Assembly (NCBI RefSeq): GCF_054482525.1
Contig: NZ_CM137006.1
Length of the DNA stretch: 64,000 bases
Reading direction: 5' to 3' (one strand)
In this document: positions 1 to 21,561 of the stretch, piece by piece
Position numbering within the stretch: position 1 is the first letter of the stretch
How the letters are laid out: the number at the start of each line of letters is the position of its first letter
Program-made: the position numbers and the translations under genes
The notes under the pieces: model-generated
What the model was told of the DNA's origin: nothing
The model's database searches: none
What the model saw: only the letters and a program-made list of their open reading frames with translations

Positions 1-522
1 ATCCACGATCCACGTCTCTCCTGGAATACCGTTGATGTGGTGACCGCCGCGGGCGGCACACCGGTGATGTCGAAAACCGGACACGCCTTTATTAAAGAAC
101 GTATGCGCAAGGAAGACGCCATCTACGGTGGCGAAATGAGCGCCCACCACTATTTCCGTGATTTCGCTTACTGCGACAGCGGCATGATCCCGTGGCTGCT
201 GGTCGCCGAACTGGTGTGTCTGAAAGGAAAAACGCTGGGCGAACTGGTGCGCGACCGGATGGCAGCGTTTCCGGCAAGCGGTGAGATCAACAGCAAACTG
301 GCGCAACCCGCTGAGGCGATTAATCGCGTCGAACAGCATTTTAGCCGTGAGGCGCTGGCGGTGGATCGCACCGATGGCATCAGCATGACCTTTGCCGACT
401 GGCGCTTTAACCTGCGCTCCTCCAACACCGAACCGGTGGTGCGCCTGAATGTGGAATCGCGCGGTGATGTGCCGCTGATGGAAGAAAAGACAAAACTTAT
501 CCTTGCGTTATTGAACAAGTAA
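1..522 (+). CDS. manB: Phosphomannomutase, C-terminal part (5' end lies outside the window); last gene of an O-antigen cluster abutting gnd
   Basis: Open frame from position 1 with no stop; translation ends ...[16 protein letters not shown], matching the C-terminus of enterobacterial ManB/CpsG phosphomannomutase; located immediately upstream of gnd. Confidence 0.75.
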
Positions 523-685
523 TTCAGTAATTTCATATAAATAAGTTTTAAAAGACGGAAAAGATGAGATATTCAGTGTGGTATAGCAAAGGTACTGCTA
601 TTCACCATCTCTATGAGTGAGTTAACATCTATACCACATTTAAGCCGCACACTCGGCGGTGAACACCCCCTGACAGGAGTATACA

Positions 686-2092
686 ATGTCAAAGCAACAG
701 ATCGGCGTCGTCGGTATGGCAGTGATGGGGCGCAACCTTGCGCTCAACATCGAAAGCCGTGGTTATACCGTCTCTATTTTCAACCGTTCCCGTGAAAAGA
801 CGGAAGAAGTGATTGCCGAAAATCCAGGCAAGAAACTGGTTCCTTACTATACAGTGAAAGAGTTTGTTGAATCTCTGGAAACGCCTCGTCGCATCCTGTT
901 AATGGTGAAAGCAGGTGCTGGCACGGATGCTGCTATTGATTCCCTCAAACCATACCTCGATAAAGGTGACATCATCATTGATGGTGGTAATACCTTCTTC
1001 CAGGACACCATTCGTCGTAACCGTGAGCTTTCTGCCGAAGGCTTTAACTTCATTGGTACCGGTGTTTCCGGTGGTGAAGAAGGCGCGCTGAAAGGTCCTT
1101 CCATTATGCCTGGTGGGCAGAAAGAAGCCTATGAACTGGTTGCACCGATCCTGACCAAAATCGCCGCAGTGGCTGAAGACGGTGAGCCATGCGTTACCTA
1201 TATCGGTGCCGATGGTGCAGGCCATTATGTGAAGATGGTTCACAACGGTATTGAATACGGCGATATGCAACTGATTGCTGAAGCCTATTCTCTGCTTAAA
1301 GGTGGCCTGAACCTCACCAACGAAGAACTGGCGCAGACCTTTACCGAGTGGAATAACGGTGAACTGAGCAGCTACCTGATCGACATCACCAAAGACATCT
1401 TCACTAAAAAAGATGAAGACGGTAACTACCTGGTTGATGTGATCCTGGATGAAGCGGCTAACAAAGGTACCGGTAAATGGACCAGCCAGAGCGCGCTGGA
1501 TCTCGGAGAACCGCTGTCGCTGATTACCGAGTCTGTGTTTGCACGTTATATCTCTTCTCTGAAAGATCAGCGCGTTGCCGCATCTAAAGTTCTCTCTGGT
1601 CCGCAAGCTCAGTCAGCAGGCGACAAGGCTGAGTTCATCGAAAAAGTTCGCCGTGCGCTGTATCTGGGCAAAATCGTTTCTTACGCTCAGGGCTTCTCTC
1701 AGCTGCGTGCTGCGTCTGAAGAATACAACTGGGATCTGAACTACGGCGAAATCGCGAAGATTTTCCGTGCTGGCTGCATCATCCGTGCGCAGTTCCTGCA
1801 GAAAATCACCGATGCATATGCCGAAAATCCGCAGATCGCTAACCTGCTGCTGGCTCCGTACTTCAAGCAAATTGCCGATGACTACCAGCAGGCGCTGCGT
1901 GATGTCGTTGCTTATGCAGTACAGAACGGTATCCCGGTTCCGACCTTCGCCGCTGCGGTTGCCTATTACGATAGCTACCGTGCCGCTGTTCTGCCTGCGA
2001 ACCTGATCCAGGCACAGCGTGACTATTTCGGTGCACATACTTATAAGCGCATTGATAAAGAAGGTGTGTTCCATACTGAATGGCTGGATTAA
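686..2092 (+). CDS. gnd: 6-phosphogluconate dehydrogenase, decarboxylating
   Basis: 468-aa ORF with N-terminal NADP-binding motif [15 protein letters not shown]; full-length match to E. coli Gnd as I recall it. Confidence 0.97.
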
Positions 2093-2117: not shown

Positions 2118-2150
2118 AGGCCCGGCGTATATTGCACCGGGCTTTTTTTT
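2118..2150 (+). terminator. Rho-independent terminator downstream of gnd
   Basis: GC-rich hairpin (gcccggcg...caccgggc) followed by a T8 run just after the gnd stop. Confidence 0.7.
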
Positions 2151-2331: not shown

Positions 2332-3507
<1,176 letters not shown>

Positions 3508-3649: not shown

Positions 3650-4630
3650 ATGATGAGAGTAGAAAATAATAATGTTTCTGGGCAAAACCATGACCCGGAA
3701 CAGATTGATTTGATTGATTTACTAATGCAGTTGTGGCGTGGCAAGATGACAATCATCATCTCTGTCATTGTTGCTATTGCCCTGGCTATAGGGTATCTGG
3801 CCGTTGCCAAAGAAAAGTGGACTTCCACAGCTATCGTTACTCAACCTGATGTGGGGCAAATCGCTGGCTATAACAATGCCATGAATGTTATCTATGGTCA
3901 GGCTGCACCGAAAGTGTCAGATTTGCAGGAGACGTTGATTGGTCGCTTCAGTTCTGCCTTCTCTGCATTAGCAGAAACGCTGGATAATCAGGAAGAACCA
4001 GAAAAACTTACCATCGAACCTTCTGTTAAGAACCAGCAATTACCATTGACTGTTTCTTATGTTGGGCAAACTGCAGAGGGCGCACAAATGAAGTTGGCCC
4101 AATACATTCAGCAAGTTGACGATAAAGTGAATCAAGAGCTAGAAAAGGATCTCAAAGACAACATTGCTCTGGGACGGAAAAACTTGCAGGACTCTTTAAG
4201 AACCCAGGAAGTGGTTGCGCAGGAGCAGAAAGATCTGCGCATCCGTCAGATTCAGGAAGCGTTGCAGTATGCGAATCAGGCGCAGGTGACAAAACCACAG
4301 GTTCAGCAGACTGAAGATGTGACGCAAGATACGTTGTTCCTTTTGGGGAGCGAAGCGCTGGAGTCGATGATTAAGCATGAGGCGACCCGTCCGTTGGTGT
4401 TCTCACCAAACTACTATCAGACTCGTCAAAACCTGCTGGATATCGAAAACTTAAAGGTTGATGATCTTGATATTCATGCTTACCGCTATGTGATGAAACC
4501 GACGTTACCTATTCGTCGCGATAGCCCGAAAAAGGCAATTACATTGATTCTGGCGGTGCTGCTGGGCGGCATGGTTGGCGCGGGGATTGTGTTGGGGCGT
4601 AACGCTCTGCGTAATTACAACGCGAAGTAA
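3650..4630 (+). CDS. wzzB: O-antigen chain-length determinant (polysaccharide co-polymerase)
   Basis: ORF track 3617..4630; the in-frame start MMRVENNNVSGQNHDPEQIDLIDLL at 3650 gives 326 aa. Has an N-terminal TM segment, a coiled-coil periplasmic region and a C-terminal TM segment with a Gly-rich motif. Start choice is inferred. Confidence 0.88.
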   Translation: MMRVENNNVSGQNHDPEQIDLIDLLMQLWRGKMTIIISVIVAIALAIGYLAVAKEKWTSTAIVTQPDVGQIAGYNNAMNVIYGQAAPKVSDLQETLIGRFSSAFSALAETLDNQEEPEKLTIEPSVKNQQLPLTVSYVGQTAEGAQMKLAQYIQQVDDKVNQELEKDLKDNIALGRKNLQDSLRTQEVVAQEQKDLRIRQIQEALQYANQAQVTKPQVQQTEDVTQDTLFLLGSEALESMIKHEATRPLVFSPNYYQTRQNLLDIENLKVDDLDIHAYRYVMKPTLPIRRDSPKKAITLILAVLLGGMVGAGIVLGRNALRNYNAK

Positions 4631-5426: not shown

Positions 5427-7504
<2,078 letters not shown>

Positions 7505-11893: not shown

Positions 11894-11930
11894 AATAAAA
11901 AAGCCCCCGGAAGATGATCTTCCGGGGGCT
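11894..11930 (-). terminator. his operon attenuator (terminator hairpin between hisL and hisG)
   Basis: On the - strand: agcccccggaagatcatcttccgggggct perfect hairpin followed by a T run, located between hisL stop and hisG start. Confidence 0.85.
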
Positions 11931-11993
11931 TACTCATGCGTTCATGCACCACTGGAAGATCTGAATGTCTTCCAGCACACATCGCCTGAAAGA

Positions 11994-12044
11994 CTAGTCA
12001 GGATGATGGTGATGATGGTGGTGTTTAAATTGAACGCGTGTCAT
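11994..12044 (-). CDS. hisL: his operon leader peptide (MTRVQFKHHHHHHHPD)
   Basis: Reverse complement of 11994..12044 reads atg aca cgc gtt caa ttt aaa cac cac cat cat cac cat cat cct gac tag: 16 codons with seven consecutive His codons. Confidence 0.92.
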   Translation of the reverse strand: MTRVQFKHHHHHHHPD

Positions 12045-12327
12045 AAAAGTCTCTGTGAATGTTTATTCAACTGATGTCTTTTAACCTAAACCACTTTCAC
12101 GTTAGAAAGCAAGGGCTTTTTTATATATTTTATGGCGATGGATTTGTTTAATGAATGAGCGGGGAAAGGAGGGGGCTAAGAGGACTGACCTCTAAGCTGA
12201 CGGCACCAAAAATAGCGAAGCCTGGATTTTTCGACTCACTGACAATATCTTGATCTACAAACTAATTAATAAATAGTTAATTAACGCCCATCATTGTACA
12301 ATGAAATGTACAAAAGAGGAGATTAAC

Positions 12328-12579
12328 ATGCGTACAATTAGCTACAGCGAAGCGCGTCAGAATTTGTCGGCAACAATGATGAAAGCCGTTGATGATCATG
12401 CCCCGATCCTTATTACTCGTCAGAATGGAGAGGCTTGTGTTCTGATGTCACTCGAAGAATACAACTCCCTGGAGGAGACGGCTTATCTACTGCGTTCCCC
12501 CGCTAACGCCCGGAGATTGATGGACTCAATCGATAGCCTGAAATCTGGCAAAGGAACGGAAAAGGACATCATTGAGTGA
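12328..12579 (+). CDS. yefM: Type II antitoxin YefM
   Basis: ORF 12301..12579; start [21 protein letters not shown] gives 83 aa; stop overlaps the GTG start of yoeB (GTGA). Confidence 0.9.
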
Positions 12580-12830
12580 AACTAATCTGGTCTGAGGAAT
12601 CATGGGATGATTATCTGTACTGGCAGGAAACAGATAAGCGAATTGTTAAAAAGATCAATGAACTTATCAAAGATACCCGCAGAACGCCATTTGAAGGTAA
12701 GGGGAAGCCAGAACCCCTGAAACATAATTTGTCAGGTTTCTGGTCCCGACGCATTACAGAGGAGCACCGTCTGGTATACGCGGTTACCGACGATTCACTG
12801 CTCATTGCAGCATGTCGTTATCATTATTGA
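12576..12830 (+). CDS. yoeB: Type II toxin YoeB (ribosome-dependent mRNA interferase)
   Basis: 84-aa [25 protein letters not shown]...; GTG start overlapping the yefM stop. Confidence 0.9.
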
Positions 12831-14712: not shown

Positions 14713-14978
14713 AGAAAAATTATTATGACAAGCCTCTCATTCTCTTGTCATTTCCCCCCCATTTAGGCACAATGCGCCGCTGTCAAAAAATGACTAAAAA
14801 CCGACGTTTAATTAGCGTCGGTTATTTTTTGCTTCAAACCAATCATTCATACCAAGAGGCCGGGCTTCGTACCGGATAGATATTTACTAAAAATCGACAG
14901 TTGTTGTCGCTGAGGAATCCAAAAAAATGGGGCAATTTTTTGCTTACGCGACGGTTATCACCGTAAAGGAGAATGACC

Positions 14979-21231: not shown

Positions 21232-21561
21232 ATGGAAACTACCAAGCCTTCATTCCAGGACGTACTGGAATTTGTTCGTCTGTTCCGTCGTAAGAACAAA
21301 CTGCAACGTGAAATTCAGGACGTTGAGAAAAAGATCCGTGACAACCAGAAGCGCGTCCTGCTGCTGGACAACCTGAGCGATTACATCAAGCCGGGGATGA
21401 GCGTTGAAGCAATCCAGGGCATCATCGCCAGCATGAAAGGTGACTATGAAGATCGTGTTGACGATTACATCATCAAAAATGCCGAGCTCTCCAAAGAACG
21501 CCGCGATATCTCCAAAAAGCTGAAAGCTATGGGCGAAATGAAAAACGGCGAAGCGAAGTAA
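21232..21561 (+). CDS. yeeX: UPF0265/DUF496 family protein
   Basis: ORF 21166..21561; start [30 protein letters not shown] gives 109 aa; terminator hairpin gagggttgcccggcaaccctc follows. Confidence 0.82.

Follow-up and report, generated by a model that had tools for sequence, protein, structure and literature searches.

A cpsG-like manB gene fragment next to gnd at the 3' end of a probable Escherichia coli O11 O-antigen gene cluster

The stretch of DNA analyzed here, 64,000 nucleotides in length and referred to below as the window, opens inside a gene that reads without a stop codon in frame 1 from position 1 to 519 and ends in a TAA codon at 520 to 522. In a profile search, the 173-amino-acid translation matched the NCBIfam phosphomannomutase CpsG subfamily PRK15414 over positions 284 to 456 of 456 (E = 3e-112), and the same fragment also matched the Pfam domains PGM_PMM_III and PGM_PMM_IV. 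A match this far above chance identifies positions 1 to 522 as the coding sequence for the last 173 residues of a phosphomannomutase. The gene, manB, is cut at the window edge, with only codons 284 to 456 inside. The full-length ManB of E. coli strain PCN033, identical to the fragment over the shared part, scores 1052.7 bits against PRK15414 (cutoff, 801) and has all of domains PGM_PMM I to IV. The window holds domain IV and part of domain III, together with the sugar-binding loop GEMSAH (fragment residue 44) and the phosphate-binding loop SNTEP (fragment residue 141), while domains I and II fall outside it and the catalytic phosphoserine loop SHNP (residue 98 of PCN033 ManB) and the metal-binding loop DGDFDR (residue 245) lie upstream. 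By profile, domains, and loops, the gene belongs to the ManB/CpsG phosphomannomutases of the alpha-D-phosphohexomutase superfamily, and its product is predicted to convert Man-6-P to Man-1-P.

The original prediction placed a phosphomannomutase gene directly upstream of gnd, and this is indeed the arrangement: a noncoding spacer of 163 nt (523 to 685) separates the two genes (Table 1). The complete spacer is confined to 434 genomes, and in a more sensitive search the others match from about query position 96 on; the gnd-proximal stretch (~618 to 685) alone is ~80 to 97% conserved upstream of gnd in genomes of other O-types. Since only this gnd-proximal part is kept in other O-types, the spacer can be divided into a manB-linked half and a gnd-linked half. 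Conservation of the spacer between O-types is lower than that of the manB body. A promoter scan of the spacer returned a single weak consensus match at 660 to 687, below the 2.7 expected by chance from shuffles, and no terminator was found between manB and gnd. The RNA fold of positions 500 to 700 was not significant (z = -1.7), and an Rfam search of positions 1 to 685 returned no family. Promoter, terminator, fold, Rfam, and conservation checks thus gave no evidence that the spacer holds any functional element other than the gnd upstream region. Past gnd, the GC-rich hairpin and its run of T residues are likely the intrinsic terminator of that gene, judging from the base sequence. The genes ugd and wzzB follow, and downstream of wzzB lies the his operon on the opposite strand. 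Positions 11895 to 12830 contain the His operon leader (Rfam, 130 bits) and then a yefM-yoeB toxin-antitoxin pair, which is missing at the same site in the O11 strain 2016C-3878.

Table 1. Features of the window and their coordinates
Feature	Positions	Strand	Remarks
manB, cpsG-like body	1-484	+	CDS positions 850-1333 of 1371, codons 284-444; part of domain III and most of domain IV
manB-specific AT-rich 3' tail	485-522	+	Last 12 codons and TAA; unrelated to the cpsG tail; common to manB of several O-types
manB-linked half of manB-gnd spacer	523-617	+	Low GC, 31.6%; only in genomes with manB closing the O-antigen cluster
gnd-linked upstream region	618-685	+	AGGAG ribosome-binding site at 675-679; probable gnd promoter-proximal sequence and 5' UTR
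gnd (6-phosphogluconate dehydrogenase)	686-2092	+	ATG at 686, 468 aa; E = 4e-232 (NCBIfam gnd equivalog); conserved gene that marks the 3' border of the O-antigen locus
GC-rich hairpin GCCCGGCG...CACCGGGC, then T8	2120-2150	+	Read from the sequence; a terminator scan lists the same hairpin at 2120-2142 on the - strand
ugd (UDP-glucose 6-dehydrogenase)	2341-3507	+	Profile match, E = 1.6e-268
wzzB, O-antigen chain-length regulator	3653-4630	+	ORF and PGAP annotation of the identical PCN033 sequence
sRNA STnc240	14758-14832		
EFASI RNA	33701-33828	-	Rfam
C4 antisense RNA	35261-35349	-	Rfam
Tyrosine integrase	57269-58294	-	Prophage region
823-aa protein with Rv2179c-like 3'-5' exonuclease domain	58556-61027	-	Prophage region
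DicF sRNA	61672-61723	-	Prophage region
HTH and peptidase S24 CI/LexA-like repressor	62875-63522	-	Prophage region

Positions 1 to 2100 of the window are 100% identical in three complete E. coli genomes, PCN033, SCU-102, and 19KM1776. PCN033 shows 2 mismatches to positions 1 to 22100 and 99.97% identity to positions 21377 to 57231, past which the window leaves the PCN033 sequence. For positions 44000 to 64000, no record in the genome collection covers the whole stretch. By these comparisons, the source genome is closely related to PCN033 without being PCN033 itself. The point of departure lies just beyond a tRNA-Ser gene (57127 to 57213, + strand), after which PCN033 has zinT and IS1397 and the window has the apparent end of a lambdoid-type prophage (57127 to 64000). 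Between 25862 and 56135 there are four equal-scoring tRNA matches where PCN033 has four annotated tRNA-Asn genes, and the PCN033 annotation of the same sequence places between them an island with integrases and an RHS core protein. Tandem-like internal repeats at 50673 to 52712, with self-matches offset by ~610 bp at 85 to 90% identity, sit within a giant gene for an Ig-like/YeeJ-type inverse-autotransporter adhesin, which measures 8.6 kb in PCN033.

As the window begins inside manB, the gene content upstream was read from genomes with the same sequence. The order in PCN033, SCU-102, 19KM1776, and 2016C-3878, the last being the one member examined of a 98.3% group whose gnd and backbone differ, is galF-wzx (O11 family)-GT2-wzy (O11 family)-GT-galE-GT4-gmd-fcl-gmm-manC-GT2-manB-gnd. 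Genes for wzx, wzy, and glycosyltransferases are present in all four relatives, where they lie upstream of the stretch represented by the window, and the four share an identical ManB protein (WP_000736848.1). The cluster is transcribed toward gnd; the window itself shows where it ends, at manB-gnd, and its galF boundary is known only from the genomes that are identical or nearly so. The 11 other genes of the O11 cluster have a GC content of 26 to 39% and a GC3 of 0.23 to 0.30, which is atypically low in comparison with the chromosome. An O11 wzy of at least 99% identity occurs in 65 of the 5,426 genomes. The E. coli O11 O-antigen cluster was reportedly described by Li and colleagues in 2011 (FEMS Immunol Med Microbiol 61:258). 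PCN033 agglutinates as O11, and its cluster has been reported to match that of the O11 reference strain G1207, HQ388393 (PMC4578781). A gene for an Und-PP-GlcNAc 4-epimerase (gnu-type) lies between wcaM and galF at positions 5454 to 6449 of the PCN033 record (L001); it is found in O11 strains and is absent from the sampled O6 strains. This distribution suggests that the O11 unit may begin with GalNAc instead of GlcNAc.

These relatives bear out the suggestion that the O-antigen cluster is of a mannose- or GDP-sugar-containing type and differs from that of K-12, since they carry an O11-family Wzx/Wzy cluster with gmd-fcl-gmm-manC as well as manB. The O8/O9-type man cluster that had been offered as an option is excluded. 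Such a mannan cluster has manC-manB with wzm/wzt/wbd between gnd and his; in the window, the interval from gnd to hisIE holds ugd and wzzB and no other gene, and the relatives have wzx and wzy upstream rather than wzm and wzt. The reading that the gene is part of an ABC-transporter mannan cluster of this kind, or is the colanic-acid cpsG itself, has a negligible probability. In favor of the cpsG reading are membership in the CpsG subfamily and the PGAP product name CpsG. The true cpsG precedes wcaJ and exists as a gene apart: 22 kb upstream in PCN033 there is an intact colanic-acid operon that includes cpsB-cpsG-wcaJ, and strains 536 and KO11FL likewise have a separate cpsG between cpsB and wcaJ. 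The presence of this separate cpsG in the wca operon makes the gnd-adjacent gene a second paralog that belongs to the O-antigen cluster by position. The adjacent gnd, the separate cpsG, and an unrelated last 38 nt and downstream flank exclude colanic-acid cpsG, the possibility that the original prediction had named as the one that would overturn it. PGAP applies the label "colanic acid biosynthesis phosphomannomutase CpsG" to the manB of the O-antigen cluster in every genome examined (L001 and L004 to L010). The name is given by family, so each genome holds two genes with the same colanic-acid label, and for manB the name is misleading about the operon.

The two paralogs are closely similar in sequence. 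The O11 manB and the cpsG of PCN033 are both 1371 nt long and are 95.5% identical in nucleotide sequence and 97.4% identical in amino acid sequence. Their similarity begins at the ATG and stops at CDS position 1333 (window position 484); outside these limits, in the last 38 nt and in both flanks, the sequences are unrelated. Over window positions 1 to 484, identity to PCN033 cpsG is 96.9%, with ~15 positions differing. This cpsG-like body, which the original prediction did not foresee, blurs the distinction between manB and cpsG at the level of sequence, by these comparisons, and not at the level of the operon. Base composition follows the same division: the body in the window has a GC content of 58.7% and the GC3 of the whole gene (0.64) is close to that of cpsG (0.65), whereas the tail at 485 to 522 has a GC content of 28.9%, in comparison with 55.3% for the cpsG tail. 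The manB tail is 55% identical to the cpsG tail and 92 to 100% identical to the manB tails of O6, O88, and O62/O68. The gene is thus a mosaic, which fits a published model in which the manB of an O-antigen cluster was overwritten by cpsG through homologous recombination or gene conversion. Judging from composition, replacement would have run from cpsG to manB, as in O157. The manB and cpsG alleles of PCN033, W, and 536 form one pool with 96 to 97.5% identity over CDS positions 61 to 1333, and in none of the three genomes is manB closest to its own cpsG over that interval. Because manB is no closer to its own cpsG than to those of other strains, recent conversion within a genome is not supported, and these alleles support an exchange that was old or repeated rather than recent.

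The genes manB and cpsG are direct repeats at a distance of 22,129 bp, and the longest stretch over which they are identical measures 132 nt (window positions 312 to 443). They could also have recombined with each other in a way that would change what lies upstream of the window. In that event, everything from wcaJ across the O-antigen cluster (~22 kb) would have been deleted, a 5' cpsG would have been fused to a 3' manB, and the strain would be rough; a crossover 5' of CDS position 850 would fall outside the window. Deletions of this kind are known from O14 strains (Jensen and Reeves 2004, cited in PMC7685785) and from 8 of 12 populations of the LTEE (bioRxiv 10.64898/2026.06.14.732165). Such deletions are, however, uncommon among natural isolates, and the full cluster is kept in all three of the genomes that are identical over positions 1 to 2100. 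The visible 484 nt of the body carry manB-type and not cpsG-type bases throughout, being identical to the O11 manB of PCN033. We therefore consider a deletion chimera to be very improbable.

The region around the end of manB is not peculiar to O11. Window positions 470 to 690, which span the manB tail, the spacer, and the start of gnd, are matched at 92 to 100% identity in 435 of 5,426 genomes, and the sampled genomes with this junction carry O6 (KO11FL/W and 536), O88, O62/O68, and O11 clusters. BL21 and other E. coli B strains match it at 92.7%. The O6 manB of E. coli W has ~4 differences from window positions 1 to 484 and ~5 from positions 1 to 685, and its identity to the O11 manB is 99.1% in the body and reaches 100% over CDS positions ~100 to 1100. 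Because the junction is common to O6, O88, O62/O68, and O11, the manB fragment alone does not type the strain, and O-typing from it was set aside as unreliable. This near-identity of the O6 and O11 genes also makes manB a plausible crossover site, so that a different man-containing O-type, e.g., O6 as in E. coli W, could have been joined to the window by recombination inside the shared manB. The few positions that separate the O11 manB from that of O6 strain W within 1 to 484, along with spacer position 683, are all in the O11 state, and the backbone, which has 2 mismatches to PCN033 in 22 kb, is that of its lineage. O11 is also the O-type of the three genomes that match positions 1 to 2100 exactly and of the examined member of the 98.3% group. 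We find a switch to another O-type very improbable in view of this agreement.

Collectively, our results are best explained if positions 1 to 522 are the 3' end of manB as the last gene of a Wzx/Wzy O-antigen cluster at the galF-gnd locus, and this cluster is almost certainly the O11 cluster already published for E. coli; we put the probability of this reading at about 90%. The assignment to O11 is made because of the match of the whole window to a lineage and not because of the manB fragment, and the O11 genes would accordingly be expected upstream in the window's own genome. The earlier statement that the serotype could not be deduced from the fragment is correct in the strict sense, as the junction is shared with O6, O88, and O62/O68, but O11 can be inferred from the stretch as a whole: its remainder has the sequence of the PCN033 lineage, in which each of the three fully matching genomes is O11.

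In the pathway that this gene content points to, ManB would, from its family membership, convert mannose-6-phosphate to mannose-1-phosphate. ManC would make GDP-mannose, which Gmd and Fcl would turn into GDP-L-fucose for use by an O-unit fucosyltransferase. A review states that manABC and gmd serve in every GDP-sugar pathway of the E. coli O antigens (PMC7685785). The presence of gmd and fcl points to fucose in the O11 polymer. Glycosyltransferases would assemble the O-unit, Wzx would flip it, Wzy would polymerize it, and the WzzB encoded in the window would set the chain length. At the level of the gene itself, the original body of manB would have been replaced by cpsG sequence, leaving low-GC character only in the final 38 nt of the gene and in ~95 nt of the spacer. 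Every element of this account has already been described, including the O11 cluster, the cpsG-like manB, the manB/cpsG deletions, and gnd as the 3' boundary.

The tail and the manB-linked half of the spacer (485 to 617) may have a broader history. We speculate, at odds somewhat short of even, that this segment is the relic of one ancestral low-GC manB-gnd junction that is now found in unrelated clusters (O6, O11, O62/O68, O88, and E. coli B), and that it sets the 3' point at which repeated overwriting of manB by cpsG always stops. Under this proposal, manB and gnd would serve as a shared recombination "handle" through which O antigens are switched, and manB together with cpsG would be a substrate for loss of the cluster.

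The finding matters little beyond annotation. The likely serogroup of the source strain is O11, which is common among porcine ExPEC. The automatic label of colanic acid CpsG misleads on operon membership, and manB and the manB-gnd junction, being common across serogroups, are unsuitable for O-typing. The 1.3-kb direct repeat of cpsG and manB, 95.5% identical and 22 kb apart, is documented to mediate spontaneous loss of the O-antigen cluster, in which recombination between the two copies deletes that cluster along with the distal wca genes, and it is also a risk for misassembly and mismapping of reads.

Several known systems bear comparison with this locus. In the O157 cluster, manB is not the last gene before gnd. 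The O157 manB has been interpreted as a product of replacement by the colanic-acid gene or of gene conversion from it (Samuel et al. 2004, cited by Iguchi et al. 2011, PMC3158064), and it resembles the O11 manB in being >95% identical to the cpsG of its own strain within an otherwise low-GC cluster. Unlike the O157 gene, the manB in the window adjoins gnd and keeps a 38-nt non-cpsG tail and a spacer that are common to O6, O88, and O62/O68. The same pair of direct repeats flanks the O-antigen cluster and the distal colanic-acid genes in the O14 type strain (Jensen and Reeves 2004) and in the LTEE deletions of E. coli B, which measure 23 kb (bioRxiv 10.64898/2026.06.14.732165). The spacing between manB and cpsG is 22.1 kb in PCN033 and 23.3 kb in REL606, and in contrast to the O14 and LTEE cases, no deletion is evident at the locus in the window. 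Measured against the K-12 cpsG/PRK15414 type, the ManB of PCN033 has all four domains and all four loops and 97.4% amino acid identity to the cpsG product; it differs in its last 12 residues, where the cpsG product ends in EARTRTLLTLLNE, and in its operon, which is that of the O antigen and not of colanic acid. The closest of the known systems is the O11 cluster (G1207, HQ388393), as the manB fragment, the spacer, and gnd are identical to those of the O11 strain PCN033 throughout the visible part.
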